Virus record (IMG/VR): IMGVR_UViG_3300032309_002930
Coordinates: 22,886 to 86,885 of that record
Strand: one strand, 5' to 3'
Origin: a virus
DNA length: 64,000 nt
Part shown: one piece after another, positions 1,440 through 28,445 of the stretch
Numbering within the stretch: the stretch's first letter is position 1
Layout of the letters: every line of letters begins with the position of its first letter
Made by a program: the position numbers and the translations under genes
The notes under the pieces: generated by a model
Database searches by the model: none
The model's input: the letters and a program-made list of their open reading frames with translations, nothing else
Told to the model about the DNA's origin: nothing

Positions 1440-3701
1440 TTATAGTTTACACGCACCACTTGAACAGTCTCTATCTTCTTTTTGGTCTAGTGATTGTTCT
1501 CTATCTCCATCGTCTGTGTTATTATAATAAAGACTAATTAATCCAAGACTATATGCATACATGATTTCTTTCATCACTTTAGCGTCTGGTAATATATTGT
1601 TTTCATAATGACTATAATTGTAGTATACGTTAGTTGATATAGCCATGTCAATATATTTTTGAATTATTGCATTGATTTTTAATAATCCACTATTATCTTT
1701 AAGATCATAAGCTAATTCATAATTATCATCATACTTACCAATTCCTGGAACCATTACTGGAAGTTTACCCATTTTACTAGTTTTATAAGTGATAAGACTA
1801 CGAATAGGTTCAACTCCATTTGTAGAGGATTGAATAACCGAACTACTTTCACAAGGCATACAGGAAGATAATGTCGAGTGTCTTAAACCATGTTCTTTAA
1901 TTTGTTTTCTTAGCTTTTCCCAATCAAGAGATAGTTTTCTTTTACATATTTCGTCTACTTTATCTTTATAAGTATCAATTGGTAATATGCCTTTAGAGTA
2001 TTTTGTATGATTGAATTTTTCGCACTTACCTTTTTCTTTGGCTAATTCTAGACTACTCTTTAAAAGGTAATATTGAAAGTATTCCATCCATTCATCAATT
2101 ACTGGTAATGACTTATCTGAACTATATTTTAATTCATTTTTAGCAAGAAAAGCTGCAAGATTAGTAATACCAATTCCAAGACTTCTACGTTTTTTAGCAA
2201 AATTTTCAGCAGCAATATTAAAGTAATCTTGAAGTTCAATGATTTCATCAAGAAATCTTACGATAAGATCGCAAGTCTTTTCAAGATCCTGCCAGTTTTT
2301 TATTTCTAGCATATTTACTGCCGAAAGAATACACATACCGATTTCGCCTTCTTTGTCATTGTAATCGTTTAATGGAATAGTTGGATGGATAACTTCTGTG
2401 CAAAGATTACTCATTGTGACTTTATCATACCAAGCTCCATGCTCATTAGCATGATCTACATTAAGAATATAAATACGACCAGTTTCAACTCTTTCTTTAA
2501 TTATCAAAGAGAATAATTTTCTAGCAGACACTTTCTTTTTTAGTTTTAATTTTTTAGATTCACATTCTTTATATACTTTATCAAAGTCTTTAGTTCCCCA
2601 AGCTTCGTAAAGCTCTGGAACTTCTGAATTATTGAATAATGTGATATCTTCATCTTTCAAAACTCTATCATAGAATAATTTACTCATACCAACAGTATAA
2701 TCAAGCTTACGAACTCGATTGTCATCTGTTCCAGCGTTATTCTTTAATACAACAATATCTTCAATTTCGTAATGCCACCATTGAATATTGCAAGTTGCGC
2801 TACCACCTCTTAAGCCATTTTGTTGCCAAGCTTTTACGCTACTTTCATAAATTTTTAAAAATGGAATTAAACCAGTATGAACAACTTCTCCATTCTTGAT
2901 TGGTGATCCAATAGCTCTAATCTTACTAACATCAATACCAATTCCACATCTATTAGCTGTAGCTATACTAACAGCAGTTGCACTAGCTGTAATACTTTCT
3001 CTTGTGTCATCTACGCCAATTAAACAACAACTAGCATAATTCCTACTAGAAGTTCTTACTCCAGCCATTACTGGCGTTGGTAAATTAATTTTATGCTTAC
3101 TAATAGCATCATAGAATTTTCTTACATAATTCAATCTTGAATCTAATGGATATTTTGCAAAAGCATAAGATGCAATTAATATATAAGCAAATTGTGGAGT
3201 TTCATAAATTTGACCAGTGGTTCTATTTTTAATTAAATATTTATCGCAAAGTTGTTTAATTCCAGCATAAGTAAAAGTAAAATCTCTTTCGTGATCAATG
3301 AACTCTCCGATCTTATTTATTTCGTCTTCGGAATAATTTTCTAAAATTGAACTATCGTATACTTTATTCTTTATGCCTTGATTTAAAAACTCTAATAGTC
3401 TTGGAGCATGTTTTCCTTTCCAAACGTCTTTTCTTAATTGATAATTTAAAAGTCTAGCAGCAACAAATTGATAATTTGGTTTTTCAGTTGAAATAAGATT
3501 AGCTGCACTTTCAATCAATAGGTTGTGTATCTCTTTGCTTGTGATACCATCATGTATGTTTATTTTTGCGTTTATCTCTATATCTGTTAGACTTACTCCA
3601 GTATAACCATCAATTGCCCAATTGATAACTTTATTTATTTTCTCTACATCAAATTTTTCTGTTGCACCATTTCTTTTTTTTATAATAACGTTCTTGCTCA
3701 T
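1440..3701 (-). CDS. nrdA: Ribonucleotide reductase class Ia alpha subunit with N-terminal ATP cone
   Basis: IKKRNG ATP cone, YETPQ, PTPVMAG, ASCCL, SNLCTE catalytic motif, C-terminal CSSGACKL; normal length, no intein. Confidence 0.98.
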   Translation of the reverse strand: MSKNVIIKKRNGATEKFDVEKINKVINWAIDGYTGVSLTDIEINAKINIHDGITSKEIHNLLIESAANLISTEKPNYQFVAARLLNYQLRKDVWKGKHAPRLLEFLNQGIKNKVYDSSILENYSEDEINKIGEFIDHERDFTFTYAGIKQLCDKYLIKNRTTGQIYETPQFAYILIASYAFAKYPLDSRLNYVRKFYDAISKHKINLPTPVMAGVRTSSRNYASCCLIGVDDTRESITASATAVSIATANRCGIGIDVSKIRAIGSPIKNGEVVHTGLIPFLKIYESSVKAWQQNGLRGGSATCNIQWWHYEIEDIVVLKNNAGTDDNRVRKLDYTVGMSKLFYDRVLKDEDITLFNNSEVPELYEAWGTKDFDKVYKECESKKLKLKKKVSARKLFSLIIKERVETGRIYILNVDHANEHGAWYDKVTMSNLCTEVIHPTIPLNDYNDKEGEIGMCILSAVNMLEIKNWQDLEKTCDLIVRFLDEIIELQDYFNIAAENFAKKRRSLGIGITNLAAFLAKNELKYSSDKSLPVIDEWMEYFQYYLLKSSLELAKEKGKCEKFNHTKYSKGILPIDTYKDKVDEICKRKLSLDWEKLRKQIKEHGLRHSTLSSCMPCESSSVIQSSTNGVEPIRSLITYKTSKMGKLPVMVPGIGKYDDNYELAYDLKDNSGLLKINAIIQKYIDMAISTNVYYNYSHYENNILPDAKVMKEIMYAYSLGLISLYYNNTDDGDREQSLDQKEDRDCSSGACKL

Positions 3702-3839
3702 ATTTTCTTTCTAGCGTAAAGAATAGTTTACAGTATTTTTAATTTTTATAAAAGAAAAATAACTATATTAATGTTAATAACTTCATATCTTAATAAACAA
3801 GTGTACTGATCTAATATCTTTTCCTAATAAATATTTCCC

Positions 3840-4120
3840 AATGAGCTCCTTCAAAGCAGAGCTTTCCCTGTGTTTTACCACAAGTTCGCTTGAGCCGTTA
3901 GTTCAATTTCCCAATTGAGTCCATAAGCCTTTCGGCTCCCTAACACTTATCGGATGTCGGTAGGATCATCCATCGCGTGTTAGCCCTTTCACCTACACTC
4001 CCAGAATTTCTTCTGGTTTCTCAGGTCGCAAGCTCTGTTAGCGTTGCCTGACGTTAAGAACTAATCTAACTCACCATTTTAAGGAGTATGGCAAACCTTT
4101 TCGCCTTTCAGCGAGATGTC
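3840..4120 (-). ncRNA. Large structured non-coding RNA candidate (family not recognised)
   Basis: ORF-free, ~46% GC by hand count versus ~18% in 3721-3840; GNRA-capped hairpins, three nested long-range helices with G-U pairs only on the - strand, possible pseudoknot; dedicated TTGACA-N17-TATTAT promoter. Confidence 0.8.
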
Positions 4121-4125
4121 GTATT

Positions 4126-4154
4126 ATAATACATCAATAAATATATTTTGTCAA
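4126..4154 (-). promoter_or_regulatory. Sigma70-type promoter driving the ncRNA candidate
   Basis: - strand TTGACA (4154-4149), 17 nt spacer, TATTAT (4131-4126); predicted start ~4120/4119. Confidence 0.8.
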
Positions 4155-4161
4155 ATAAAAT

Positions 4162-4842
4162 TTATTCAATCATTTTATAGTAATCATGATCAAAATGTGG
4201 ATTTAAATTTATTATTCCATTTTCTTTTATACAAAGTTTTTCAGCCCAATCATAGATTTCTTTATTAGTTCTATTTCCCATTCCAGAAACATGATAAGTA
4301 TTCATTCCCCATCTATATATCATAGTAGGATTTTTTAAAGATGTGAAGACTTTAGCATTATAATTACCAAAAGTTCTCATATCTTCAAGATAAGTTGTAT
4401 CATTGCATACAAGTTTTTTTAAATATTTTTGAGTATAAATAACACCAGTGTTATAATTTCCGCTAGCACCCTTAAACTTATTATCTACAAAATAGTAATG
4501 AGCACTACTTCGATATATATCATATCCAGGATTTTCTTTTATTGTTTCTTTTGATAAATTGACTGCATTACTAGCTAGCAAATCATCATCCTCCAACCTA
4601 TAAATATAATCATTCTTACATTCTGTATAACCATAGTGATATTTACTCTCAATAGAGGCAAATCTTTCTTTTAAATTTACAATTTTAATATTTGGATGAT
4701 TTAAAATATATTCTACATTTTTATTATCATTAATAATAACCATCTCATCAGAATCATTTAAATTTTTTTGATTTAAAAAAGAATATATAGCTTCTTCTAA
4801 TAGATGTTTCCTTTGATATGTTATAGTAAGAAAGGAAATCAT
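4162..4842 (-). CDS. GT-A/GT2-family glycosyltransferase
   Basis: ISFLTITYQR..LLEEAIYSFLNQ, IINDN, RLEDDD (DxD-like). Confidence 0.8.
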   Translation of the reverse strand: MISFLTITYQRKHLLEEAIYSFLNQKNLNDSDEMVIINDNKNVEYILNHPNIKIVNLKERFASIESKYHYGYTECKNDYIYRLEDDDLLASNAVNLSKETIKENPGYDIYRSSAHYYFVDNKFKGASGNYNTGVIYTQKYLKKLVCNDTTYLEDMRTFGNYNAKVFTSLKNPTMIYRWGMNTYHVSGMGNRTNKEIYDWAEKLCIKENGIINLNPHFDHDYYKMIE

Positions 4843-4850
4843 ACTATATT

Positions 4851-4878
4851 TTACACATATTTGTTGATTTTAGTGTAA
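4851..4878. promoter_or_regulatory. Divergent pair of GTGTAA putative late promoters
   Basis: TTACAC 4851-4856 and GTGTAA 4873-4878, each 8 nt from an ATG (4842 on -, 4887 on +). Confidence 0.7.
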
Positions 4879-4886
4879 TGCTATAT

Positions 4887-5681
4887 ATGCCAATACCTCA
4901 ACCAAACGACAATGAAAAACAAAACGATTATATGGGTCGTTGCATGCATTTTTTAAATAAAAAAGGCGAAACAAAAAGACCTCAAAATCAACAAGTTGCA
5001 ATTTGCCTTAATACTTTTAAAGGACCAAAAAAGAAAAGTAAAGCAGAAGTTGAGATTGATTTTTCCGAACAAATTAAAAATCTGAAAAAAGAAGAAATCA
5101 AAACAGAAGAAGCTCCAAAAGTTGAAGCTAAAGTTGAAGAACCAATAAATACTGCTGTAACTGCACCAGCACCAGAAGTTAAAGCAAAAGAAGTAAAAAT
5201 AGAAGAAGCATCAGCTTCTTGTGGTAAGCCAAATTGTGGTTCAGTTCAACAATTCGAAGAAATAAAAACCGAAGAAGTTAAAATTGATGAGACGAAAGCA
5301 GAAACTGATGGCAAGGGCGAATTGATTCAAACAACCCTTCTTCAAATGCAACATCAATATAAAATTCTTCATTGGCAAACTCAATCATTCTCACAGCATA
5401 AATCATTTGATGAAATCGTAAGTAGCTTAATGGAAAATACTGATGAATTTATTGAAACTTACATGGGTAAATATAGTAGAGTAATTGCAGCTGGAACTTT
5501 TAATATTACTTTAGCTAATTATAAAGATACAGATTTCATGGCTCTTACAGATAAATATATTGAATTTTTAATTGGCTTATCTAATATACTTGACGCTTCA
5601 AAAGATTCAGATCTATTAAATATTAGAGATGAAATTCTTGGTTCATTAAATCAATTAAAATATCTATTAACACTTCAATAA
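4887..5681 (+). CDS. Phage protein: N-terminal MPIP..RCM..AIC module, Glu/Lys-rich linker, C-terminal Dps/ferritin-like four-helix domain
   Basis: KILHWQTQSFSQHKSFDE...DEFIETYMGKY resembles the Dps/ferritin-like HW..H..D..E pattern; start moved from 4878 to 4887 based on promoter spacing. Confidence 0.6.
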   Translation: MPIPQPNDNEKQNDYMGRCMHFLNKKGETKRPQNQQVAICLNTFKGPKKKSKAEVEIDFSEQIKNLKKEEIKTEEAPKVEAKVEEPINTAVTAPAPEVKAKEVKIEEASASCGKPNCGSVQQFEEIKTEEVKIDETKAETDGKGELIQTTLLQMQHQYKILHWQTQSFSQHKSFDEIVSSLMENTDEFIETYMGKYSRVIAAGTFNITLANYKDTDFMALTDKYIEFLIGLSNILDASKDSDLLNIRDEILGSLNQLKYLLTLQ

Positions 5682-5682
5682 T

Positions 5683-5982
5683 ATGAGAAGAATCAAAGTC
5701 TTAGAATTTGACATTACTCAAACTGAAGCTTATCAAAAAAACTATAAGGGTAAAAAAAGAAGCCAATTAAAAGATAGTGATTTTCTTTTTCCAGAAAAAC
5801 GTTCATTTCCAATAGTATCTCCACAAGATGTAAGAGACGCAATTAATAATTACGGTCGCATGGGTGGAGGAATGAGTTATGACGCATTTATTAAAAAATT
5901 ATATCAAAAAGCTAAAAGTAAAGGCCCAGAGTTCGTATCTGCTATTCCAGAAAAAACAAGAAAAGAACATAATTTAAGTTAA
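5683..5982 (+). CDS. Small phage protein with DSDF.FP..R.FPI motif (DUF6582-like, often head-associated)
   Basis: KRSQLKDSDFLFPEKRSFPIVSPQDVRDA motif. Confidence 0.5.
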   Translation: MRRIKVLEFDITQTEAYQKNYKGKKRSQLKDSDFLFPEKRSFPIVSPQDVRDAINNYGRMGGGMSYDAFIKKLYQKAKSKGPEFVSAIPEKTRKEHNLS

Positions 5983-5989
5983 AATTATA

Positions 5990-6018
5990 TTGACTTTTTA
6001 TTTTAATTAAACTATCAT
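5990..6018 (+). promoter_or_regulatory. Sigma70-type promoter of the glycan cluster
   Basis: TTGACT-N17-TATCAT. Confidence 0.65.
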
Positions 6019-6033
6019 ATAAATAACATTTAT

Positions 6034-6921
6034 ATGAATAAGAAGTATATATTGCTTGATGATCAATCAATAGAGATTGGCGGAACCAATTTAACCACAT
6101 TGTCTATCCTAGAAGACAGAAGTAATGAAGTGTTCACGTTAACTCCGAGTTCATTATCATTATATGATATTAATGACAATAAAGATAAATTATGGATAAT
6201 TGGTAATATAATGACTCTTTTAAATAATCCAAATAAAAATATAATTTTTGAATTATTTGAAAATATTAATTTTGTTAAATTAGAATTTGATTACAATTTC
6301 TGTCAATACAGAGGAGAAATTCCACATCAAAAATTAGCATCACAACCTTGTACTTGTCCACATGGTTTAACTGGAAATAAAGCCCTCTCTGATATCTATA
6401 ATTTAATTACAACAAATGCCAAACATTCGTTCTTTATGTCAGAAAGACAAAGAGCTATATATGCTAATCATATGCCTTTATTGAATTTTTCTAAAACAAG
6501 CATTCTTTCATCTTGTTTTTCAAAGAAAAATCTAGAAAACTTTATTTCATTAAGAGCAAATCCAAAAAATGAAAAATTTGCAATCTTAGAAGGTTTTGGT
6601 GGTTGGCACAGTACAGCTAAGGGTCTGGAAGAAGCAAAAAACTTCTGTACAATCAATAATATAGAGTTTGATATTTTGCCAGTTCAAGCTTACGATAAGC
6701 ATATACAACTTTTATCTACTTATAAAGGATTAGTTTTCTTACCTATTATTGATGATACTTGCCCTAGATGTATTATTGAAGCTAGGCTTTTAGGATTAGA
6801 CGTTATAACAAACATACATTCACAACATGTAACTGAATGGTGGTGGAAAAAACCGCATTTAACTGAAGAGTATATAAAAGATAGACCTAAGCATTTTTGG
6901 AATATAATAGATTCTTTATAA
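6034..6921 (+). CDS. GT-B fold glycosyltransferase-like protein
   Basis: N-terminal GG motif; C-terminal KGL...FLP..DTCPRCIIEARLLGLDVIT matches the GT4 E-x7-E-type region. Confidence 0.65.
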   Translation: MNKKYILLDDQSIEIGGTNLTTLSILEDRSNEVFTLTPSSLSLYDINDNKDKLWIIGNIMTLLNNPNKNIIFELFENINFVKLEFDYNFCQYRGEIPHQKLASQPCTCPHGLTGNKALSDIYNLITTNAKHSFFMSERQRAIYANHMPLLNFSKTSILSSCFSKKNLENFISLRANPKNEKFAILEGFGGWHSTAKGLEEAKNFCTINNIEFDILPVQAYDKHIQLLSTYKGLVFLPIIDDTCPRCIIEARLLGLDVITNIHSQHVTEWWWKKPHLTEEYIKDRPKHFWNIIDSL

Positions 6922-6958
6922 AAGTAATAATTATATTAAGAATATAATTAGCAAATAT

Positions 6959-7675
6959 ATGAAATTAGGAATTTTATTACCCATCAAAAATTCTGCAGAT
7001 AGTATAGACGCATGTTTATCTAGTATACAAAATCAAACTAGTTTTTTAAATAATAATTTTGAATACGAAATAGTATTGATAGATAATAATTCCAAAGATA
7101 ATTTAAAAGAAAAAATACAGAAATATAAAAATATAAAGTATTTATCTTGTGATATTGATGGTATAGTTCCCACTTTAAATACTGGGTTATTTTATATATT
7201 AAATAATTCAAATATAAAATATATAGCTAGAATTGACGCAGATGATGAATGGCTTTCAAGTAAAATAGAAAAACAAATGACTTTTTTATTAAATAATAAG
7301 CATATACACATCTGTGGAACTCAAATGAATTTTATAAAAGCTAATGAAGATGTTAATCTACCATTTAAAATAACTCCATACCCAATTGATGATGCATCAA
7401 TAAAAACCTCCTTAATTAATGGAATGAATCCAATTGGTCATCCAAGTGTCATCTATAATAAAGAAATTTTTTTAAAATTTGGCGGATATGATGAAACATA
7501 TAAACATGCAGAAGATTTAGACTTATGGTTAAAATGTTTAAAATTTTTTAATTTTGCAAATATTAACGAACCACTAGTTAATTATAAATTTGGAAAAAAA
7601 TGGTATAACGAAATTCAAAACAAAAACTGCAAACTTTTAAATAAAAGAACTGGGGATTTATATTTTAGTATATGA
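6959..7675 (+). CDS. GT2 glycosyltransferase
   Basis: ILLPIKN, IDNNSKD, ARIDADD, HPSV, AEDLDLW. Confidence 0.9.
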   Translation: MKLGILLPIKNSADSIDACLSSIQNQTSFLNNNFEYEIVLIDNNSKDNLKEKIQKYKNIKYLSCDIDGIVPTLNTGLFYILNNSNIKYIARIDADDEWLSSKIEKQMTFLLNNKHIHICGTQMNFIKANEDVNLPFKITPYPIDDASIKTSLINGMNPIGHPSVIYNKEIFLKFGGYDETYKHAEDLDLWLKCLKFFNFANINEPLVNYKFGKKWYNEIQNKNCKLLNKRTGDLYFSI

Positions 7676-8457
7676 TTATTTCTAAAATTCAAGGAGGACT
7701 AGGAAATCAATTATTTCAATGGGCAATAGCAGAAAATTTAGCCAATTTAAGTAATACAAATTATTCATTCGATATATCTTTTTATTTAAATCAAAATCAT
7801 AGAAAGTTTGAACTTTATAAATTTAAAAATATTCCAATAAATATTAGTCAAGTTAAAGATATAAATATGTCAATGTTAAATATAATTAATGAATCTTCTA
7901 TCTCATTCAATGAAATATACTATAAAGATCCAACATATTTACATGGATATTGGCAAAATGAAATCTTTTTCAGAAAATCTAAAGATTTAATAAAATCAAA
8001 ATTAAAAATAGATAATAATTTAGATATTTATATTAAAAATAAATACCCTATACTTAACGAAAATACAGTATCAATGCACATAAGAAGAACTGATTATCTA
8101 TCTCTTTCGGACTATCATTATAATCAATCTTTAAATTATTATAATAATGCATATGATATTTTAAATGATAAAAATATAAACGTCATAGTATTCTCAGACG
8201 ATATCAACTGGTGCAAAGAAAATATGAAATTCAATAATATTCATTATATTGAGAACGAAGATAATATTGTTGATCTTTATATTATGTCAAAATGTAAAAA
8301 TAATATTATAGCAAATAGCACATTTAGTTGGTGGGCAGCATGGCTAAATGAAAATACAGAAAAAAAAGTTTTTGCTCCTAAAAACTGGTTTAGCCACAAA
8401 GGTCCAGAAAAAACAAATTTACTTTTAGATCAATGGATTATTATTGACAATAATTGA
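7672..8457 (+). CDS. GT11 alpha-1,2-fucosyltransferase-like
   Basis: GGLGNQLFQ, GYWQ, HIRRTDY, FSDD, IIANSTFSWWAAWL. Confidence 0.92.
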   Translation: MIISKIQGGLGNQLFQWAIAENLANLSNTNYSFDISFYLNQNHRKFELYKFKNIPINISQVKDINMSMLNIINESSISFNEIYYKDPTYLHGYWQNEIFFRKSKDLIKSKLKIDNNLDIYIKNKYPILNENTVSMHIRRTDYLSLSDYHYNQSLNYYNNAYDILNDKNINVIVFSDDINWCKENMKFNNIHYIENEDNIVDLYIMSKCKNNIIANSTFSWWAAWLNENTEKKVFAPKNWFSHKGPEKTNLLLDQWIIIDNN

Positions 8458-8472
8458 TTATTATAATATAAT
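8444..8472 (+). promoter_or_regulatory. Consensus sigma70 promoter, leaderless-type
   Basis: TTGACA-N17-TATAAT; ATG only 6 nt after the -10 box. Confidence 0.8.
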
Positions 8473-8478
8473 AACAAA

Positions 8479-9780
8479 ATGCAAGATTTAAATTCAATTC
8501 TTTCTTCTTTAGAAGATTATTTAAAGAACAATAAACCCAAATATCTTTACAATAAATCATTTATTCCTGGAAAAAGCACTGTATTATACTCTGGACCATA
8601 CTGGGATGAAAAAGAAATTATGGCTGCAATCAGTACTTTCGTCACAGGAAAATGGGTTGTAGCTGGAGAGAATGTTCATAAGTTTGAAAGTGAATTTGCA
8701 AAAATGTTTGGAGTTAAGTACGCGCAGATGGTTAATTCTGGAAGTTCTGCAAATTTAGTTATGGTTGCATCGCTTAAAAAACATTTCAATTGGGAAGATA
8801 ATTCAGAAATAATAGTTTCCCCAGTAGGTTTTCCAACCACAATTTCTACTATTATCCAAAATAATTTAAAACCAGTATTTGTAGATATAGAATACAAAAC
8901 ATTAAATTTTGATATTTCTAAAATAAAAGAAAAAATTACAGACAAAACTAGAGCTATTTTTGTATCACCAGTTCTCGCAAATCCACCAGATATGGATGAA
9001 TTAACTATATTATGTAATGAACATAATATTAAATTAATTGGTGATAGTTGTGATAGCATTGGTTCAAAATGGGATGGAAAAGATTTGAGTAGCTATTACA
9101 CTGCTTGGTCATGTTCATTTTATCCTGCCCATCATATCTCGACTGGAGAAGGAGGTATGGTTTGTACCGATATATTAGAATTAAAAAAATTATTTACTAG
9201 TTTTTCTTGGTGGGGTCGCGATTGTTATTGTATTGGTTCGGCTAATTTACTAGCATGTGGAACATGTGGAAATCGTTTTGATAAATGGTTAGAATCATAC
9301 GACGGAACAATTGACCATAAATATGTTTTTACAAATATGGGATACAATCTTAAACCAATGGATTTGCAAGGCTCAATTGGGTTAGTTCAATTAACTCGAT
9401 TCAAAGAAATAGATAGAAAAAGAAAAGAAAGTAAATTAAGAATTGAGTCAATTCTTCTTAAATATGTATCTGGACTCAAAGGAGTTCAAACTCTAGAAAA
9501 AGCTGATACTTGTTGGTTTGGTACTCCATTTATTTGTGAAAATAAAACTTTAAAAAATAAATTGGTGACATTTTTAGAAGAAAATAAAATTCAAACTAGA
9601 AATTATTTTGCTGGAAATGTTTTAATGCATCCAGCGTATAAACATCTTGATGATTTAACTAAATATCCAAATGCAAATCAAGTTTTAGATAAAGTATTTT
9701 TTTTAGGAGCAGCTCCACATTATGATGAAAATGTTTTCAATTACGTAGAAAATATTTTTAAAGAAAAATGGATTAATTAA
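8479..9780 (+). CDS. rfbH: NDP-4-keto-6-deoxyhexose 3-dehydrase (RfbH/DdhC, E1-type)
   Basis: VNSGSSANL, SFYPAHHISTGEGG (His in place of the PLP Lys), WGRDCYC..CGTC Fe-S motif, GYNLKP, TRNYFAGN. Confidence 0.88.
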   Translation: MQDLNSILSSLEDYLKNNKPKYLYNKSFIPGKSTVLYSGPYWDEKEIMAAISTFVTGKWVVAGENVHKFESEFAKMFGVKYAQMVNSGSSANLVMVASLKKHFNWEDNSEIIVSPVGFPTTISTIIQNNLKPVFVDIEYKTLNFDISKIKEKITDKTRAIFVSPVLANPPDMDELTILCNEHNIKLIGDSCDSIGSKWDGKDLSSYYTAWSCSFYPAHHISTGEGGMVCTDILELKKLFTSFSWWGRDCYCIGSANLLACGTCGNRFDKWLESYDGTIDHKYVFTNMGYNLKPMDLQGSIGLVQLTRFKEIDRKRKESKLRIESILLKYVSGLKGVQTLEKADTCWFGTPFICENKTLKNKLVTFLEENKIQTRNYFAGNVLMHPAYKHLDDLTKYPNANQVLDKVFFLGAAPHYDENVFNYVENIFKEKWIN

Positions 9781-9781
9781 A

Positions 9782-10315
9782 ATGAATATTATTAAAACTC
9801 CATTAGATGGATTGTTTGTTATTGAACCAAAAATTTTTGAAGATGTCAGGGGTTATTTTTTTGAATCTTATAATGCAAATGATTTTAAAAAATATGGTAT
9901 ACATACAAATTTTGTTCAAGAGAACCAGTCTAATTCATCCAAAGGTGTTTTAAGAGGTTTACATTTTCAATTTCCTCCATATGCTCAAGCTAAATTAGTT
10001 AAAGCAGTTACTGGATCTGTTTTAGACGTAGCTGTAGACATAAGAAAAGATTCAAAAACATATGGAAAATACCATTCAGTTGTTTTGACTGGAAAAAATA
10101 AAAAAATGCTCTATATTCCAGAAGGATTCGCTCATGGTTTTTTAGCCTTAGAAGATGACACGACAATTCAATACAAGTGCTCAAATTTTTATAACAAAGA
10201 GTGCGATGCTAGTATCATTTGGAATGATTCAACTATTAATATTGATTGGGGTATAGATTATGAACCAATTATTTCTGAAAAAGATAAATTAGGAATGAAA
10301 TTAGCTAATTTTTAA
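9782..10315 (+). CDS. rmlC: dTDP-4-dehydrorhamnose 3,5-epimerase
   Basis: DVRGYFFESY, FVQENQS, GVLRGLHFQ, DVAVDIR, GFAHGF, SEKD. Confidence 0.95.
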   Translation: MNIIKTPLDGLFVIEPKIFEDVRGYFFESYNANDFKKYGIHTNFVQENQSNSSKGVLRGLHFQFPPYAQAKLVKAVTGSVLDVAVDIRKDSKTYGKYHSVVLTGKNKKMLYIPEGFAHGFLALEDDTTIQYKCSNFYNKECDASIIWNDSTINIDWGIDYEPIISEKDKLGMKLANF

Positions 10316-10328
10316 TCATTATTTTAAT

Positions 10329-11012
10329 ATGAAAAAAATACTTGTTCTTGGGGATGGATTGCTAGGCAAAGAAATAGTCAAACAGACTGGATGGCAATAT
10401 GTATCCAGAAGATGTAAGAATTTTGATATAAACAGAATTGAAGAGTCTTTAAAAGATTTTGATATTAATATTATTGTTAACTGTATTGCAAATACGCAAA
10501 CTTATTCCAAAGAAAAAGAATCTCATTGGGATGTCAATTGTAAATTTTTATCTAATCTAATTAATTACTGTAATCAAAAATCTATTAAATTAGTTCATAT
10601 ATCAACAGATGCTGTATATTTTAATTCTGTAAATAACGCTTCAGAAGAGGATATTCCAATACATGGTAATAATTGGTATGGATATACAAAATTAATTGGA
10701 GATGCGCTAGTGCAACTACAATGTAATAATTATTTATTAATTAGATGCCAACATAAACCAACTCCATTTCCATACGAAGCAGCTTGGATGAATCAAATAG
10801 GTAATTTTGATTATGTAGATATAATATCTAATTTAATATGCAAATTAATTAATAGCGAACAATCTGGATTATTTAATTTAGGAACCCAAATAAAAACAAT
10901 GCATGAATTAGCAAAATCAACCAATCCCTTAGTAAACAAATCGTTCACTCCACCTTATGTACCATCTAATACAAGCATGAATATTGATAAACTAAAAAAT
11001 ATTATAAAATAA
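10329..11012 (+). CDS. RmlD-like NDP-sugar reductase (short)
   Basis: LVLGDGLLG, HISTDAVY, YGYTK. Confidence 0.8.
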   Translation: MKKILVLGDGLLGKEIVKQTGWQYVSRRCKNFDINRIEESLKDFDINIIVNCIANTQTYSKEKESHWDVNCKFLSNLINYCNQKSIKLVHISTDAVYFNSVNNASEEDIPIHGNNWYGYTKLIGDALVQLQCNNYLLIRCQHKPTPFPYEAAWMNQIGNFDYVDIISNLICKLINSEQSGLFNLGTQIKTMHELAKSTNPLVNKSFTPPYVPSNTSMNIDKLKNIIK

Positions 11013-11728
11013 TGCAAACTCAAACTATTTCTCCTTTTTTCTCTATTGCAATCCCAGCTTATGGATACAATGGTAAAGGTGTAGAATTTTTACAATATAA
11101 TTTAGATATACTTATAAAACAAAAATTTAAAAATTTTGAAGTTATTATAGCTGATCATAGCTCAGATGATACAATTAAAGAAGTTTTTAATCAATACGAA
11201 TTTAAGCAAAATTTATCAATTTATTATCACAGAACTAATTATGGACACGGATTCACTGCGCCTAATTTAAATAACGCCATAAGAAATTCTAATGGGAAAT
11301 GGATTAAAGTATTATTTCAAGATGATTTTTTATTTGACGAAAATTCTCTTCAATTTCAATATGAAAAATTAAAATCTAATTCAAACATAAAATGGTTAAT
11401 TACAACATTTTGCCATAGCAATGATGGAATTAATTTTTATAAATTATACAAACCATTTTTAAGTCCAAATATTTGGTCTGGAGCAAATACTCTAGGAAAT
11501 CTTAGCAACTTAACTTTTGTAAACAATGACGTAATTTATTGTGACGAACAATTAAATTGGTTAATTGATTGTGATTACTATTATAAATTATTTTTAAAGT
11601 ATGGAGAGCCAGAGATATTAAATGAAATAACGGTAGTCAATAGAACTCATGGAAATGGATTATCAAACACTATTTCCACAGATCTAAAAATGCGAGAATT
11701 TGAAATGTTAAAAAAACGATATGCTTAA
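11012..11728 (+). CDS. GT2 glycosyltransferase
   Basis: SIAIPAY, IADHSSDD, NLNNAI, LFQDD, LIDCDYY. Confidence 0.85.
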   Translation: MQTQTISPFFSIAIPAYGYNGKGVEFLQYNLDILIKQKFKNFEVIIADHSSDDTIKEVFNQYEFKQNLSIYYHRTNYGHGFTAPNLNNAIRNSNGKWIKVLFQDDFLFDENSLQFQYEKLKSNSNIKWLITTFCHSNDGINFYKLYKPFLSPNIWSGANTLGNLSNLTFVNNDVIYCDEQLNWLIDCDYYYKLFLKYGEPEILNEITVVNRTHGNGLSNTISTDLKMREFEMLKKRYA

Positions 11729-12380
11729 TTTAGATAATATAACACTAGTAGCTTTAACTTCTGTAAAATTAGAAAATACAGTAAAAGCTTTAATGCATAG
11801 TTGTAAAGATATTAATTTTAATTCTATAAAATTAATTTCACATGAAATTCCAAAAAATTTACCATCTAAAATACAACATGAATTTTGTTCAAAAATGTCA
11901 AATATTGATGAATGGAATTATGCTGCAATTTATGAATTGCCAAAATACATAAATACAAAGTTTTGTATATTGATTCATGATGATGGGTTTATTGTAAATC
12001 CAGATTCTTGGAGATCAGAATTTTTAGAATACGATTACATTGGTGCTCCATGGCCATTACCAAAAGATGATTTTTCATTCAAAACAATAGACGGTGAAAT
12101 TATTCGAGTAGGAAATAGCGTTTCTCTAAGAAGTAAAAAGCTATTAGATTTACCAATTAAATTAAATATGAAATGGGAGTCTTTTCATGGATATTATAAT
12201 GAAGATGGTTATATTTGTGTTAATAATAGACATATATATAAAGAACATGGATGTAAATTTGCAGATATAAATGTAGCAAAATATTTTTCACATGAGACAA
12301 TGATACCAGAAATTGAGGGGATAAAACCATTTGCTTTCCATAGGCATAATGGAACAAATTCAATTTATCCAAAATTTTAA
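11721..12380 (+). CDS. DUF5672-like GT-A-type protein
   Basis: IHDDGFIVN, FLEYDYIGAPW, VGNSVSLRSKK, NEDGY, PFAFH. Confidence 0.75.
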   Translation: MLNLDNITLVALTSVKLENTVKALMHSCKDINFNSIKLISHEIPKNLPSKIQHEFCSKMSNIDEWNYAAIYELPKYINTKFCILIHDDGFIVNPDSWRSEFLEYDYIGAPWPLPKDDFSFKTIDGEIIRVGNSVSLRSKKLLDLPIKLNMKWESFHGYYNEDGYICVNNRHIYKEHGCKFADINVAKYFSHETMIPEIEGIKPFAFHRHNGTNSIYPKF

Positions 12381-12381
12381 A

Positions 12382-13044
12382 ATGACTAAAGAAATTATTG
12401 TTGCGGCATACGACAAACCATTAGACTGGATATCAAATATTAATAAAGATGTAAAAATAACAATATATCGCAAAGGAAATATTCTTAATTCTTCTTTTGA
12501 TGAAATTAAGATTGAACCTAATGTAGGAAGATGCGTTCATACATTTTTTAATCATATATATACAAATTACAATTCTCTCGCAGATTATACTTATTTTTGT
12601 CAGGATTTCCCATTCGATCATTGGGGAAATATAATAGATATTATAAATAATGATCCTAATTTTTTAAATAAAACAGCATCATTAAATATTGGTGGGTATT
12701 ATGGTTATCATAATAATTTCTTTGGATCAGCATGGAATATGTTAAATTCTAATCAATTTGGTACAGGTAAAGTTTTAACTTGTTTAAGTAATGGATATCC
12801 ACAAGATACAAATCCACAAATAGATGTTAATAAATATTGGGAAATTCTATTTGAAGGTTGTCCACCTCAAACTTATGAATTTATTCCTGGAGGACATTTT
12901 TGCATTACTAGCGAGCATGTTAAACTAAGACCTTTGTATTTTTATTCTAAAATTACTGACTTATTAGAAAAAAATCCAATAGCTCCATGGTTAATTGAAA
13001 GATTAGAATGCTATATATTCAACCCCAATTTTACAATTAAATAA
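12382..13044 (+). CDS. DUF3431-like putative glycosyltransferase
   Basis: IVAAY..LDW, PNVGR..HTFFNHI..NY, FCQDFPFDH, ERL; start placed at the ATG right after the upstream stop. Confidence 0.65.
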   Translation: MTKEIIVAAYDKPLDWISNINKDVKITIYRKGNILNSSFDEIKIEPNVGRCVHTFFNHIYTNYNSLADYTYFCQDFPFDHWGNIIDIINNDPNFLNKTASLNIGGYYGYHNNFFGSAWNMLNSNQFGTGKVLTCLSNGYPQDTNPQIDVNKYWEILFEGCPPQTYEFIPGGHFCITSEHVKLRPLYFYSKITDLLEKNPIAPWLIERLECYIFNPNFTIK

Positions 13045-13089
13045 TTATTTGATTTTAATATAAAAATAATTATAATATCTTAAGATAAA

Positions 13090-13902
13090 ATGATAACTAC
13101 AGAAATATATAATGGACAAGGCCCTGGAGATCAATTATGGGTTTATTTAACGACTAGATATATAGCTTATAAAAATGGTTATGATTTTGGCATAGGTCAT
13201 CCAGAAAGATGGAAATTAAAAAATTTGAATATTAATTTTGGATTACCAGTAGTTGGTGGAAGCAATGTTAAAGAAGGTGGACCATACATCTCTCTACCAG
13301 ATGGAATATCTAAATATTATAAAGAAAAACATACTTGGAATATGAATTTTGATGATTGTAATGTTAGCGATGTTGATTGGGATTCATTTAAAGTAGAAGA
13401 CTCTACAAAATTAGAAGGTTTATTTCATTATTCTTTTTTAATTAAAGAAAATGCAGAACTTTTTAAGGATTGGTTAGACTTTAATTCTATCATAGCTAGA
13501 AATCCAGTTGTACCTGGAAAAGTCATAGCTAATATTCGTGGTGGAGAATATAGGGGCGTTAGCGATTTAATTTTACCAAAAAGATATTGGGATATGGCTC
13601 TAGATCGTTTAGGAAATCCTCCAGTAGAAATAGTTACTGATGATCCTATTTATGCATTAACCTTAATACCTAGTGCAAAAATATTCGAAGGCAATATGAT
13701 TGATCATTTTGAAAGATTATTTACTGCTGATAAACTAATATTATCTAATTCAGCTTTTGGTTTTTTTCCAGCAGCTTTAGGAAAAGCGTCAGAAGTTATT
13801 GCTCCAAAATACTGGAGTAGATGGAATGTATCTGATGGTTTTTGGGCCATGGAATGCGACAGATATGATGGATTTACATATATTGACAGAGACGGAAAAT
13901 AA
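13090..13902 (+). CDS. Divergent GT11-like fucosyltransferase
   Basis: GQGPGDQLW, NIRGGEY, VTDD, ILSNSAFGFFPAAL, VIAPKYW. Confidence 0.75.
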   Translation: MITTEIYNGQGPGDQLWVYLTTRYIAYKNGYDFGIGHPERWKLKNLNINFGLPVVGGSNVKEGGPYISLPDGISKYYKEKHTWNMNFDDCNVSDVDWDSFKVEDSTKLEGLFHYSFLIKENAELFKDWLDFNSIIARNPVVPGKVIANIRGGEYRGVSDLILPKRYWDMALDRLGNPPVEIVTDDPIYALTLIPSAKIFEGNMIDHFERLFTADKLILSNSAFGFFPAALGKASEVIAPKYWSRWNVSDGFWAMECDRYDGFTYIDRDGK

Positions 13903-13908
13903 CAGCTA

Positions 13909-14727
13909 ATGAATATGAAGAAAAAAATAGCATTAGTAACAATGGCAAAAGAAGAAGATCTATATTTACAAGAATGGATTGATTATCATCTTAAATTAGG
14001 ATTTGATGCAATTTATATATATCAAAATAACTGGAGATTTAAAAATCAAATACCCAATGATAGAGTCCATTTTCTTGAATGGGATTTAGATTCATTGCCA
14101 CAAAGTAATCCTAACGCTCCATGGGAATGGAACAGGCATGCTATATGTTATAGTACATTTGGTAAAGATTATCATAATGAATACGAATGGGCTGCATTTT
14201 TTGATGTTGATTGTTTTTTAGATCTTAAAAAGACAGATAATGTAAAATCATTTATATCGGAATATGATAATATTAAAGAAAGCCATCTAGTAATTGATTT
14301 TGCAATTTTTGGAGATAATGGGCATTCTGATTTTAGCCTAGATAATACGAGCGTCTTAGAAAGATTTACAAAACGTTGGGGTAAACCTTATAATCATTCA
14401 TATTATGGATTTTTACCAATTTGTAAGCTACATTCAAACTTTGGAAAACATGCTATACATTTTATCGATGGAGAAGAATGGTCAGATGTGAATTTCGTTA
14501 TAGGTTCTGGTTTTGGATCAGTTTTAAATCATAATAGAATCATAACTTATGAAAAAGCTCAATTAAATCATTATTTTTGTAAGACATTACCAGAATGGAT
14601 GATGAAAATGCAAAAAACTAGAGCTGAAGGAGATTCTTTTAAAAACTCAATGGAGGCATTTCATCAACATAATTTTAATGATATTGAAGATGCGCATGCT
14701 TTAGATTTTTTTAAAAAAAATATCTAA
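13909..14727 (+). CDS. GT92/GT2-like glycosyltransferase
   Basis: MAKEEDLYLQEWIDYH..LGFD, FFDVD, QLNHYF. Confidence 0.75.
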   Translation: MNMKKKIALVTMAKEEDLYLQEWIDYHLKLGFDAIYIYQNNWRFKNQIPNDRVHFLEWDLDSLPQSNPNAPWEWNRHAICYSTFGKDYHNEYEWAAFFDVDCFLDLKKTDNVKSFISEYDNIKESHLVIDFAIFGDNGHSDFSLDNTSVLERFTKRWGKPYNHSYYGFLPICKLHSNFGKHAIHFIDGEEWSDVNFVIGSGFGSVLNHNRIITYEKAQLNHYFCKTLPEWMMKMQKTRAEGDSFKNSMEAFHQHNFNDIEDAHALDFFKKNI

Positions 14728-14736
14728 AATAAATTT

Positions 14737-15303
14737 ATGAAACCAATACACTTAAGAAATATACCGCCTCCAGGCGAAACATTCAATCATGTGGTTTTTT
14801 TAGATGGATTATTGCAATGGATTAAGCCAGAGCTTTATCTAGAATTAGGAGTTAGAGATGGTAGAAATTTTATTACAGCTGCAAAACATTGTACAAAAGC
14901 AATTGGTGTTGATATTTCTGCTCCGCCATTTCAATTACAGCCAAACATGGAATATCATGTTTTAACTACCGATGAATATTTTAAAAATTTAAATCCAGAG
15001 ATTAAATTTGACGTCGTGTTTATAGATGCTGATCATTCACACGAACAATCACTTATAGATTTTATGAATGTTAAGGATAAAGTAATTGAAGATGGTTTTA
15101 TATTTCTTCATGATACATATCCGTATGATCCAATTTTTTTTGATAAACATGCTTGTAATGATGTCTACAAAACAGCATTATATATAAAACAAAATTTAAT
15201 TGATGATTTTGAAATAGTAACTTTACCAATTAATCCTGGAGTTACAATCGTTAAAAAGATCAAAAGAAATAAACAACTCATCTATATTAATAATGAAAAA
15301 TGA
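14737..15303 (+). CDS. Class I SAM-dependent methyltransferase (Methyltransf_24-like, probably sugar O-methyltransferase)
   Basis: YLELGV..G, FDVVFIDADHS, GFIFLHD. Confidence 0.85.
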   Translation: MKPIHLRNIPPPGETFNHVVFLDGLLQWIKPELYLELGVRDGRNFITAAKHCTKAIGVDISAPPFQLQPNMEYHVLTTDEYFKNLNPEIKFDVVFIDADHSHEQSLIDFMNVKDKVIEDGFIFLHDTYPYDPIFFDKHACNDVYKTALYIKQNLIDDFEIVTLPINPGVTIVKKIKRNKQLIYINNEK

Positions 15304-16219
15304 AAAAATTTTTATAACAGGTGGAGCTGGATTTTTAGGTAAAAATTTAATAAAATTATTATATAACGAAAATGAAATAACTGTATATTCAAGAGACGAA
15401 TCTAAACATTATTTTTTAAAAAAACAATTTCCATCCGTAAATTTTATTATTGGAGACATAAGAAATAAAGACCTTTTAATTAGAAAATCTAAAAATCATA
15501 CAGTAGGAATATTTGCGGCTTCATTAAAACAAATAGAAGCTTGTGATGAAAATTACGAAGAAGCGGCTAAAATAATAATAGATGGAGCTTTTAATTCTAG
15601 ACTAGCTGCGGAAGAAAATAAATTTAAATCTGCATGCTTTATATCATCTGATAAAAGCAGAGCAGCTACAACTATTTATGGCGCCATGAAATATGTTGCT
15701 GGTGAAGGTTTTATATCTGGAAGTTCTAACGTTAAATTAACTACAGCGATTTATGGAAACGTTATGAACTCAACAGGATCTATTATACCATTAATTTGGA
15801 ATTTTATAAATAATAATAAATGTTTAACTTTGTATGGAGAAAATATGACTAGATTTTTACTGGATGTAGAAGACGCTATTAATTTAATACTTAAATCTAG
15901 CAAATATGAAAATTGTAGTTTAATTCCTACTGCTAATTCATTTAAAATACAAGATTTATTTGAAATATACTCTAAAGAGTTTAAATTAAAATATAAAATA
16001 TCTAAACCCAGAACAGGTGAAAAAATACACGAAATAATGTCATCAGCAGAAGAGATTAGAAGACTAGAATTTATACAAAATGATAATTTATATTTATTGC
16101 ATCCTAAAAAAGAAATCAATACAGTTTCATTTCAGAATGATGAATATTCTTCAAGAGATAGATGTTTAAGCAAAGACGAACTTTACGATTACTTAAAAAG
16201 TAAAAATTTTTATAAATGA
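15293..16219 (+). CDS. UDP-GlcNAc 4,6-dehydratase (FnlA/PseB/CapD-like)
   Basis: ITGGAGFLG, YSRDE, GDIR, AASLKQ, SSDK, YGAMK, YGNV..S.GSIIP, MTRF, GEKIHE. Confidence 0.88.
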   Translation: MKNEKIFITGGAGFLGKNLIKLLYNENEITVYSRDESKHYFLKKQFPSVNFIIGDIRNKDLLIRKSKNHTVGIFAASLKQIEACDENYEEAAKIIIDGAFNSRLAAEENKFKSACFISSDKSRAATTIYGAMKYVAGEGFISGSSNVKLTTAIYGNVMNSTGSIIPLIWNFINNNKCLTLYGENMTRFLLDVEDAINLILKSSKYENCSLIPTANSFKIQDLFEIYSKEFKLKYKISKPRTGEKIHEIMSSAEEIRRLEFIQNDNLYLLHPKKEINTVSFQNDEYSSRDRCLSKDELYDYLKSKNFYK

Positions 16220-17025
16220 AATTAATATTATTTGGTTCAAATGGTATGCTTGGAAACTATTTAAAATCTTATCTTTCGGATAAATATCATACTTTAGCTT
16301 TAACTAGAAAAGATATAGATTTAGCTCACGCTAGCGAATCTGAACTATTAATTTTTTTACAAAATAATGTAAAAAAAAATGATATTATTGTGAACGCGGC
16401 TGGAGTTATAAAACAAAGAGAATACGACGCAAAGGATATGATAATGGTTAACGCAATATTTCCTAATATATTAGCTAAATTTAAAGATGAAATTGGTTGT
16501 GAAATTATACATATAACAACTGATTGCGTTTATAGCGGAAACAAAGGATCATATGATGAATCTAGTTTACATGATTGTACAGATGACTATGGCAAAAGTA
16601 AGTCTTTGGGTGAAAATATAAAATTAACAAACATTAGAACTTCAATTATTGGCGAAGAAAAATTAAATAAAAAATCTTTACTAGAATGGCTCAGATCTAA
16701 TAAAAATAAAACAATAAATGGTTATGACAATCATTTATGGAATGGTATCACTTGTTTAGAATTATCTAAATTAGTTAATGATATAATTAAAACGAATTCT
16801 TATTGGCATGGTATAAGACATGTATTCTCACCAAATACTGTAAGTAAATACGAATTAACGAATATGATCAATGAAATTTATGATCTAAATATAAAAATTA
16901 ATAAAATAACGACAAATATAAATTGCTATAGGAATTTAAGTTCAAAATTTCCTAAATTAATAACAAAAATACTATACGAACAAATATTAGAATTAAAAAA
17001 TTATAGCGATTATAATATAATATGA
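16216..17025 (+). CDS. RmlD-family NDP-4-keto-sugar reductase
   Basis: GSNGMLG, VNAAGVIK, HITTDCVYSG, YGKSKSLGE, RTSIIG. Confidence 0.85.
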   Translation: MKLILFGSNGMLGNYLKSYLSDKYHTLALTRKDIDLAHASESELLIFLQNNVKKNDIIVNAAGVIKQREYDAKDMIMVNAIFPNILAKFKDEIGCEIIHITTDCVYSGNKGSYDESSLHDCTDDYGKSKSLGENIKLTNIRTSIIGEEKLNKKSLLEWLRSNKNKTINGYDNHLWNGITCLELSKLVNDIIKTNSYWHGIRHVFSPNTVSKYELTNMINEIYDLNIKINKITTNINCYRNLSSKFPKLITKILYEQILELKNYSDYNII

Positions 17026-17876
17026 GAAAATTATACGACTGTTTTAATTTTTTTAATGAGTTGGATATTCTTGAGTTAAGATTAAATATTTTATACGACG
17101 TAGTTGATTTTTTTATAATAGTTGAATCTGACTTAACTCATAGTGGACAAAAAAAACCTTTTTATTTTGAAGAAAATAAACATAGATTTTCTAAATTTTT
17201 GGATAAGATTATATCATATAAAATATATGACAATCCTTCTGATTTTGTAAATTTACCTAATACACAAGATGTGGAATTGCAAAAGATTTATGATTTTATG
17301 AAAATTACAAAAAAATTTAATCCATATTTTCAACCTGATTATGGTAGAGATTTTTTTCAAAAAGAAAGCGTCAGAAGAGCTTTGCAGAATTGCGATGAAA
17401 ATGATATAATTATTATTTCAGATGCTGATGAAATACCAGATCCTAAAGTACTTAAAGATATAGAAAAATTAGATCTAGATAATACCATATACTCTTTAAA
17501 TCAACCCATGTATTGTTTTTATTTAAATGTTTTAAAAGAAAACGAATGGTGTGGTTCAAAAATTGGTATTTATAAGAATATGAAAAAATATTCATTTAAT
17601 GAAATCCGAGGAGATCATTCTTTAAGTTCTATTATACCCAAAGCTGGTTGGCATTTTAGTTTTATGGGTGGAGAAGAAATGGTTAAAAATAAAATACTAT
17701 CTTATTCAGCCAGAGATATGGTAGATAACAATGTTTTATCATCAATTAAAAATAATATGATTAATAATATTGACCCATATTTTAGATCTACCCTCACTAA
17801 AGTAGATATTCAATCTACGCACCCAAAATATATTTTAGATAATATTGAAAAATATAAAGATATGATAAAACTATAA
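17022..17876 (+). CDS. GT17-like (beta-1,4-GlcNAc transferase family) glycosyltransferase
   Basis: YDCFNFFNELDILELRL, VES..THSG..KP, SDADEIP, GWHFSF. Confidence 0.85.
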   Translation: MRKLYDCFNFFNELDILELRLNILYDVVDFFIIVESDLTHSGQKKPFYFEENKHRFSKFLDKIISYKIYDNPSDFVNLPNTQDVELQKIYDFMKITKKFNPYFQPDYGRDFFQKESVRRALQNCDENDIIIISDADEIPDPKVLKDIEKLDLDNTIYSLNQPMYCFYLNVLKENEWCGSKIGIYKNMKKYSFNEIRGDHSLSSIIPKAGWHFSFMGGEEMVKNKILSYSARDMVDNNVLSSIKNNMINNIDPYFRSTLTKVDIQSTHPKYILDNIEKYKDMIKL

Positions 17877-17877
17877 A

Positions 17878-18780: not shown

Positions 18781-18794
18781 TAAAATCATACAAT
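18766..18794 (+). promoter_or_regulatory. Sigma70-type promoter upstream of gmd
   Basis: TTGAAT-N17-TACAAT, ATG at 18803. Confidence 0.5.
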
Positions 18795-18802
18795 CAATAG
18801 TT

Positions 18803-22873: not shown

Positions 22874-22885
22874 GTGTAAAATTAG

Positions 22886-23152: not shown

Positions 23153-23153
23153 C

Positions 23154-23182
23154 TTGACTTTTAATTTTTAATATAGTATCAT
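23154..23182 (+). promoter_or_regulatory. Sigma70-type promoter upstream of dnaB
   Basis: TTGACT-N17-TATCAT; ATG at 23191. Confidence 0.7.
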
Positions 23183-23190
23183 AATTGTTG

Positions 23191-27168: not shown

Positions 27169-27171
27169 CTA

Positions 27172-28444: not shown

Positions 28445-28445
28445 T

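Follow-up and report, generated by a model that had tools for sequence, protein, structure and literature searches.

A stand-alone RNA gene with a double-pseudoknot fold and twin identical boxes in uncultured lake phages

The DNA studied here, a stretch of 64,000 nucleotides (nt) from IMG/VR virus record IMGVR_UViG_3300032309_002930 (positions 22,886 to 86,885; the window hereafter), is part of an 86.9-kb record that is about 57% complete. In this window, a gap of 460 nt without open reading frames (ORFs; 3702-4161) precedes the minus-strand genes nrdA (1440-3701) and nrdB (372-1436). What does this gap encode? A first-pass annotation, made from the letters of the window, had proposed a non-coding RNA of unrecognised kind, with several helices, a pseudoknot and a promoter of its own, which could be a stand-alone phage RNA, a leader regulating nrdAB or a replication primer. 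Here we describe this RNA as a new family with a fold supported by covariation, and report that it carries two short purine-rich boxes of the same sequence that change from lineage to lineage together.

A stand-alone RNA gene of no catalogued family

The region of the RNA, 3835-4115, has a GC content of 46.3% (42.5% over 3840-4154), compared with 18.3% in the adjoining 3721-3840 and 28.6% in the whole window. ORF-free gaps were defined as at least 150 nt without ORFs of at least 80 amino acids (aa) and were scored on their best 150-nt stretch; 3702-4161 is the sole gap of the window exceeding 40% GC, in line with the first-pass annotation, which had seen here the only long ORF-free GC island and had put it at ~46% GC by hand count. 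The TTGACA-N17-TATTAT promoter that it had recognised on the minus strand gives the best promoter score within 3400-5000, and 26 of 27 representative homologues have a sense promoter scoring at least 10/12 at an equal distance. No terminator-like site was detected in the scan of 3400-5000, including between the RNA gene and nrdA, again in line with the earlier reading. Both strands fold better than shuffled sequences (folding-energy z-scores of -3.4 for the minus and -4.2 for the plus strand), so that energy alone gives no strand. The promoter, together with the frequent G-U pairs in conserved helices (for instance in 17, 14 and 11 of 20 sequences at three pairs), points to an RNA encoded on the minus strand, for which the earlier argument had also used G-U pairs. 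No conserved ORF that could explain the composition was found in the RNA, the longest ORF per homologue being 19-83 aa (median 39).

A search with NrdA collected 80 IMG/VR loci. The RNA element was detected by a single-sequence nhmmer search at the same place in 19 of them, and profile searches added the divergent type B (L069) and type C (six loci), likewise upstream of nrdA. In 25 further loci, assigned to types D and E, the RNA gene follows nrdB on the opposite strand and converges with another ORF (L053, G003 and G009 are examples of this after-nrdB placement). In the window and 25 other loci of types A, B and C, it precedes nrdA on the same strand by 130-430 nt, and in G001, G005 and G006 it is found 7-10 kb upstream, also on the same strand. 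R1, a covariance model of the RNA core with 134 positions, gives a single match in the window (3938-4055) and matches in 48 of the 80 nrdA loci, 47 of them at E ≤ 6e-8 and one, clipped by the locus end, at E 0.0035; a match inside nrdA at E 0.048 was taken as false. Exactly one copy was present in each of the 11 clade records searched whole, and no credible copy was found in the distant records G007 and G008 or in the Pelagibacter phages HTVC008M and Mosig (best E 0.18). A degenerate pattern scan yielded 112 stretches; 90 of these were new loci, 61 confirmed by R1 and 29 being chance matches. In total, R1 matches were obtained on 91 distinct IMG/VR contigs. Counting fetched parts only, the RNA is present in 60 of the 80 nrdA contigs; the other 20 comprise eight whose nrdA is distant (77-81% identity), five that are short (11-14 kb) and seven longer ones, for which the nrdA flank alone was searched and three of which show partial nhmmer matches.

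These placements bear directly on the proposal that the RNA is a cis-acting leader or riboswitch of nrdAB. Such a role would fit the loci where the RNA shortly precedes a same-strand nrdA and no terminator separates the two. It is contradicted by the loci where the RNA follows nrdB on the opposite strand or lies several kilobases away, and by a promoter-like block before nrdA that is kept in loci with and without upstream RNA. In addition, no riboswitch or leader model of Rfam 15 matches and no expression platform is visible, as no terminator-like site is present. Because the RNA changes place and strand relative to nrdAB and nrdA keeps its own block without it, the RNA is not an nrdAB leader; this part of the first-pass annotation is refuted by the placements, and we leave it almost no probability. 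The block itself (around 3725-3820 in the window) reads TACAC ... TGTTAATAA ... TTTTTCTTTT ... AATRCTGTAAYAT and is also seen in L007, L009, L013, L024, L042 and L044; since it is kept with or without the RNA gene upstream, it is possibly the nrdAB promoter or operator. With three placements relative to nrdAB and one copy per clade record, the RNA gene is a stand-alone, single-copy core gene of its phage clade, the first of the possibilities raised earlier.

The RNA also belongs to no catalogued RNA family. Rfam 15 gave no match at gathering score over the whole window, and at E ≤ 10 the RNAs of types A, E, D and C gave weak unrelated matches only, with no family recurring. The RNA gene does not lie within any gene and matches no group I intron, RNase P RNA or tmRNA model; ARAGORN found no tRNA or tmRNA in the window, and a blastn search against 50,697 phage records returned no match. 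No paper on this RNA was found in the literature. The IMG/VR-wide catalogue of Fremin et al. contains candidates of 29-151 bases, and nrd is not mentioned in the part of its main text available to us (PMC10690425). A riboswitch scan of pelagimyophages, as far as its text was available, found nothing (PMC7029224). Hence the RNA is new as an RNA family.

The fold and the twin boxes

The fold was assessed on an alignment (A2) of 20 type A sequences with a model of 13 helices and 70 pairs, in which 94.8% of cells are paired. Double changes occur at 27 of the 70 pairs, compared with 15.6 +/- 2.0 in shuffles and 1-8 in slid registers, and none of 500 shuffles reached as many; these shuffles, like the haplotype shuffles used below, ignore the relatedness of the sequences. 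From 5' to 3', the RNA consists of P1, a conserved AGUUU(U)G linker, P2, the 5' strand of a long-range helix, P3, P4 and the 5' strand of pseudoknot 1, followed by P5/P6, P7, box 1, the 3' strand of the long-range helix, P8, GG(G/U)AAA, the 3' strand of pseudoknot 2 and box 2 (Table 1). The two parts of the long-range helix, LRa and LRb, are both 100% paired, with double changes at 2/5 and 5/7 pairs, respectively. P5 is paired in 100% and P6 in 94% of cells, with two double-change pairs each. Many unpaired nucleotides are invariant, and the GNRA loops are conserved while their stems co-vary.

Two pseudoknots complete the fold, and both were examined across types on 44 of 45 sequences (one being dropped), with helix strands cut at hand-chosen anchors. 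Pseudoknot 1, formed with CCUAC in the P6 loop, is invariant in type A; across types, its 9 haplotypes have 5.56 of 6 positions paired against 4.86 when shuffled (2/10000 as good). Pseudoknot 2, whose 5' strand is the P3 loop (4037-4031), has 6.83 of 7 positions paired over 12 haplotypes against 5.34 when shuffled (0/10000 as good), and shows three double-change pairs inside type A.

All helices listed by the first-pass annotation do exist in the sequence at the coordinates given, and most of them stand. Among its three nested long-range helices, UGAGUU/GGCUCA and UUAGUUC/GAACUAA are supported by covariation, as are the inner hairpins UCAGG/CCUGA, CCAGAA/UUCUGG, CUAACAC/GUGUUAG, GGAUG/CAUCC and AGCC/GGCU; the GUAGG/CCUAC pairing is the pseudoknot 1 described above. 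The outermost AGGUUUGC/GCGAACUU helix and the AAUU-GGGA-AAUU hairpin find no support, since they pair in 76.3% of cells against 76.2% in shuffles, 310 of 500 shuffles being equal or better. P1, P2, P3b, P8, pseudoknot 2 and the twin boxes are additions to that description.

Table 1. Promoter, structural elements and boxes of the RNA gene in the window, from 5' to 3' of the minus strand
Feature	Position in window	Strand	Basis
Sigma-70-type promoter TTGACA (4154-4149) N17 TATTAT (4131-4126)	4126-4154	-	consensus match 11/12
RNA body, ~290 nt	3831-4122	-	extent as aligned (alignments A1, A2)
P1 hairpin UCGCU-GAAA-GGCGA	4101-4114	-	aligns weakly, 54.8% of cells paired; 3 double-change pairs
P2 hairpin GCCAU...AUGGU	4073-4092	-	100% paired; double changes at 3/5 pairs
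Long-range closing helix, 5' strands (LRa 4072-4068, LRb 4064-4058)	4058-4072	-	covariation
P3 (P3a 4051-4047/4025-4021, P3b 4043-4041/4029-4027)	4021-4051	-	covariation
P4 hairpin, GNRA loop	4001-4016	-	98.3% paired; double changes at 4/6 pairs
Pseudoknot 1, 5' strand GUAGG (partner 3964-3960 in P6 loop)	3992-3996	-	covariation across types
P5 (3983-3977/3946-3940) and P6 (3971-3967/3956-3952), internal loop between	3940-3983	-	covariation
P7 hairpin AGCC-GAAA-GGCU	3926-3937	-	100% paired
Box 1 (GACUCA-A-UUGGGAAAU), unpaired in consensus structure	3906-3921	-	cross-type comparison
Long-range closing helix, 3' strands (LRb 3904-3898, LRa 3896-3892)	3892-3904	-	covariation
P8 hairpin, variable	3867-3884	-	82.8% paired
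Pseudoknot 2, 3' strand AGCUCUG (partner 4037-4031)	3857-3863	-	covariation
Box 2 (GAGCUCA-UUGGGAAAU), at or near 3' end	3833-3848	-	cross-type comparison

P4 is a plain GNRA hairpin in type A, and types C, D and E have a longer one. The apex of the extended P4 of types D and E (UGUACAUUAUAUGGCU or UGUGCAUAAGAUGGCU) is conserved and carries short stretches of self-complementarity, as noted at L053 (7640-7690), L021 and L047.

The twin boxes are two purine-rich stretches of 9-10 nt, 66-76 nt apart, with the general form ...UCA-A-X for box 1 and ...UCA-X for box 2. In type A, X is UUGGGAA(A/G)U, with the variants CUGGGAAGU, UUGGAAAGU and UUGGGAAAAU; it is GGGAAAAAGU in type B and AAGAAAAGU in types C, D and E. 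Positions 1-9 of X are equal in both boxes in 44 of 44 sequences. When the 10 nt following UCA are compared over 16 haplotypes, box 1 and box 2 are identical at 9.44 of 10 positions against 6.62 in shuffles (0/10000 as good). The changes seen among these haplotypes are transitions or expansions of the A-run, matched in both boxes, and all single-base variants are transitions. GGA stands before almost every box. Judged from these sequences, the boxes behave in evolution like the two strands of a helix, drifting between lineages while staying identical within each RNA.

Partners for the boxes were looked for in several places. When each box was compared with the rest of its RNA using RNAduplex in 45 homologues, no site was consistent across types. 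The P1 loop CCCAAUUAG was rejected as partner of box 1, as it is complementary to that box in one type A subgroup but occurs in type D too, whose boxes are different. The record containing the window (87 kb) shows no enrichment of the box motif or its complement and no perfect complement, and the complement of the box 10-mer is absent from the complete 172-kb relative G009. Use of the boxes as DNA-level iterons was set aside because their spacing is not phased. A telomere-like use was dismissed as well, since the 357-bp repeat at the ends of G009 comes from assembly overlap within a repetitive coding region and is not box-like. In G009 (171.9 kb; ends L257 and L265), the same 357 bases, from an Ala/Gly/Val-rich coding region, are found at the start and the end, and this overlap indicates a circular or permuted map.

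What the twin boxes could do

No complement was found in the RNA, in its own record or in G009, no conserved antisense promoter exists in or after the RNA in the 27 representatives, and no reverse transcriptase was detected (RVT_1, PF00078; 0/5 records that are 57-87% complete, with controls matched in three genomes); the template DNA is then the complement that is always present. We therefore consider, with a probability of roughly 0.3, that by analogy the RNA could act at its own locus like ColE1 RNA II, hybridising to its own template DNA. According to this scheme, host RNA polymerase would transcribe the RNA early, without a terminator, and the folded core would hold box 1 single-stranded. 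Box 1, having the sequence of box 2, could hybridise to the template strand of box 2 while the polymerase passes and anchor a persistent purine-rich RNA-DNA hybrid (R-loop). This R-loop would open the AT-rich DNA beyond and provide a primer or a helicase-loading site for phage replication. On the hybrid reading, the boxes would drift and yet stay identical because only the DNA encoding the other box co-varies automatically.

ColE1 RNA II forms its hybrid through a G-run and a C-run, and oriF and oriG of T4 are R-loop origins. The RNA resembles ColE1 RNA II as an untranslated, structured transcript with a strong promoter for host polymerase and no terminator, in which the same sequence occurs twice, so that upstream RNA is predicted to be able to pair with downstream template DNA. 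As at ColE1 and R-loop origins, the DNA beyond is AT-rich: over 28 representatives, the 100 nt that follow box 2 have a mean GC content of 19.6%. In three of five long records (G000, G001 and G002), the RNA gene is within 1 kb of the main minimum of cumulative GC skew and of a divergent strand switch. The RNA differs from ColE1 RNA II in having no sequence or model similarity to it, in its conserved double-pseudoknot fold with GNRA loops, in lacking an RNA-I-like antisense promoter among 27 representatives, and in its carrier, a lytic-type phage of 130-170 kb with DnaB, DnaG and Pol III alpha.

Several observations weigh against this mechanism. In all types, box 1 is longer than box 2 by one A. 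The upstream intergenic DNA is also AT-rich (mean 22.5% GC), which leaves little discrimination, and in the two other long records, G003 and G009, the RNA gene is 9 and 8.5 kb from the skew minimum, facing it and head-on to nrdAB; moreover, phage GC skew mostly follows transcription. A double pseudoknot with conserved GNRA loops is commoner in ribozymes, riboswitches and scaffolds of ribonucleoproteins (RNPs) than in known primer RNAs. The phage encodes its own DnaG-type primase, and searches of seven records for a phage RNase H or 5'-3' exonuclease were negative, which is neutral, as host enzymes could serve. With the same tentative weight, and in a broader form, two identical "reader" segments on a double-pseudoknot scaffold might read one DNA sequence twice, either the own template strand or a host site. 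Such an RNA would form a new class and would program a DNA transaction of a large lytic phage, be it replication licensing or priming or recombination, without a known partner protein family.

About equally likely to the ColE1-like hybrid is a trans-acting RNP in which the core would be a scaffold and the boxes twin sites for one phage or host RNA-binding protein, bound as a dimer or in two copies; the RNA might then serve as a decoy or sponge, or as an enzyme's RNA subunit, and its boxes would co-evolve with the protein. Proteins are the partners of most stand-alone structured bacterial and phage RNAs of known function, and a single-copy core gene with an early-type promoter, boxes that are unpaired in the consensus structure and GGA before almost every box would all suit this reading, as would the variable spacing, which fits flexible recognition at the RNA level better than helical phasing on DNA. 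The five type A box variants UUGGGAAA, UUGGGAAG, CUGGGAAG, UUGGAAAG and UUGGGAAAA speak against it, since each is matched in both boxes and a protein would have had to shift its specificity repeatedly among close relatives; nor is any gene consistently adjacent. The nearest precedent is found in nutL and nutR of lambda-type phages, where boxB is a hairpin bound by N and the boxB sites co-evolve with N. There too, two short RNA elements are alike within one phage and different between phages. Unlike boxB, the boxes described here have no supported hairpin (it pairs as in shuffles) and both lie in one RNA, and we know of no N-like partner for them. It is more doubtful that the RNA is a ribozyme or assembles into an RNA-only particle in the manner of GOLLD and ROOL (which we take to be RF01998 and RF03087), the boxes being tertiary or inter-subunit contacts. 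The double pseudoknot, the conserved GNRA loops on co-varying stems and the many invariant unpaired nucleotides would be expected of such an RNA. GOLLD and ROOL, which occur in phages and prophages, are also stand-alone RNAs with an elaborate fold that were first noticed as conserved islands between genes, and their function is likewise not established in the part of the literature available to us. As part of the same doubtful reading, the two boxes might conceivably pair with each other in parallel, purine to purine, since parallel homo-base pairing would need identity and not complementarity, but such a duplex is not known to have a natural precedent in an RNA of this kind. No ribozyme or ornate-RNA covariance model matches, no cleavage-site signature was identified, and with ~290 nt the RNA is far smaller than GOLLD or ROOL, which are several hundred nucleotides longer. 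In addition, the window contains no tRNA genes, and we know of no counterpart of the twin boxes in those RNAs.

Two further readings take the repeated sequence itself as the point. A trans-acting RNA with two identical seeds for a pyrimidine-rich target in host RNA or DNA seems unlikely: two accessible identical purine-rich stretches are indeed available, and variants that are all transitions would be tolerated by wobble pairing, but the searches for a perfect complement, which covered phage DNA only (the record of the window and the complete 172-kb relative), were negative, and wobble with a fixed target predicts an occasional mismatch between the boxes, which does not occur in the first 9 positions over 16 haplotypes. 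Very unlikely, in our view, is a template RNA whose copying polymerase would switch from one box to the other, by rolling circle as for DRT2 or by realignment as for telomerase. In DRT2 and telomerase RNAs, short identical sequences also bound a segment of a structured RNA, and a segment of ~70 nt flanked by short identical repeats is what is seen here. Unlike these systems, no RVT_1 domain was found in the five records mentioned above, the segment between the boxes is structural, carrying the 3' strands of the long-range helix and of pseudoknot 2, its length varies between 66 and 76 nt, and the ends of G009 are an assembly overlap in a repetitive gene and not box-like repeats.

The phages carrying the RNA and what the RNA may mean for them

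The clade that carries the RNA consists of uncultured, AT-rich, siphovirus-like lake phages of 130-170 kb with a replisome of DnaB, DnaG and Pol III alpha. In the window, a replication module (21315-31858) encodes RecA, a DnaB-type helicase, ThyX, a DnaG-type primase, a PD-(D/E)XK nuclease, a PHP protein and a separate DNA polymerase III alpha. The only other ORF-free gap of at least 150 nt (29085-29296; 212 nt, 33% GC, best stretch 36%) lies just before the DNA polymerase III alpha gene. The tail genes comprise a lambda-J-like tail fibre (36370-40587) and minor tail proteins, and the bacterial-type replisome together with this lambda-J-like tail identifies the phage as large and siphovirus-like and not as T4-like. 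A T4-like assignment was indeed rejected, as only NrdA (53%), NrdB (42%), PhoH and, weakly, gp41 among 26 HTVC008M proteins match three clade records. A 2389-aa ORF is found at 50334-57503 on the minus strand, and the neighbouring ORFs of 819 and 329 aa have no PHROG match.

The nearest named NrdA sequences are those of pelagimyophages and cyanomyophages. G007 and G008 (L076 and L078) have an NrdA 78-79% identical to that of the clade and helicases only 22-24% identical, nrdA being the only gene shared. That NrdA is alike while helicases and other genes differ suggests, at the level of sequence comparison, that nrdAB was exchanged horizontally between unrelated phages. In HTVC008M and Mosig, a DNA primase gene lies directly upstream of nrdA; this primase matches Mosig, G007 and G008 and none of seven RNA-bearing records. 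The RNA is nonetheless not regarded as a replacement of a gp61 primase, because the clade is not T4-like, G007 and G008 have nrdA alone in common with it, and a DnaG-type primase is encoded in the window itself (25316-26230).

Searches with Pfam and PHROGs revealed nothing informative or constant among the genes beside the RNA gene. In the window, a GT2 glycosyltransferase gene lies upstream of it, and type D loci have small ORFs without assigned family. A long run of sugar-modification genes (4162-20949), which includes GT2 and GT11 glycosyltransferases, a DegT aminotransferase and a nucleotide-sugar epimerase, begins at the strand switch beside the RNA gene. At 4149-4200 and the equivalent position in homologues, 12 of 27 representatives have a second promoter-like site, which lies on the opposite strand, ends 46-55 nt upstream of the aligned RNA start and shares the near-palindromic TTTGACAAA -35 region, so that divergent promoters would stand back to back.

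The novelty thus applies to the RNA family, and the mechanism is unproven; a replication primer RNA, as the first-pass annotation had envisaged, is the leading candidate. If the fold and the twin boxes are confirmed, the RNA would represent a widespread new family in abundant uncultured lake phages, and its two unpaired stretches, which drift and yet remain identical, would be a signature that we could match to no described RNA mechanism. Should the RNA-DNA hybrid reading be wrong, the RNA would still be a well-defined candidate for a new RNP or ribozyme. If it is true, the RNA would reveal the way in which replication begins in a large phage whose replisome is of bacterial type.

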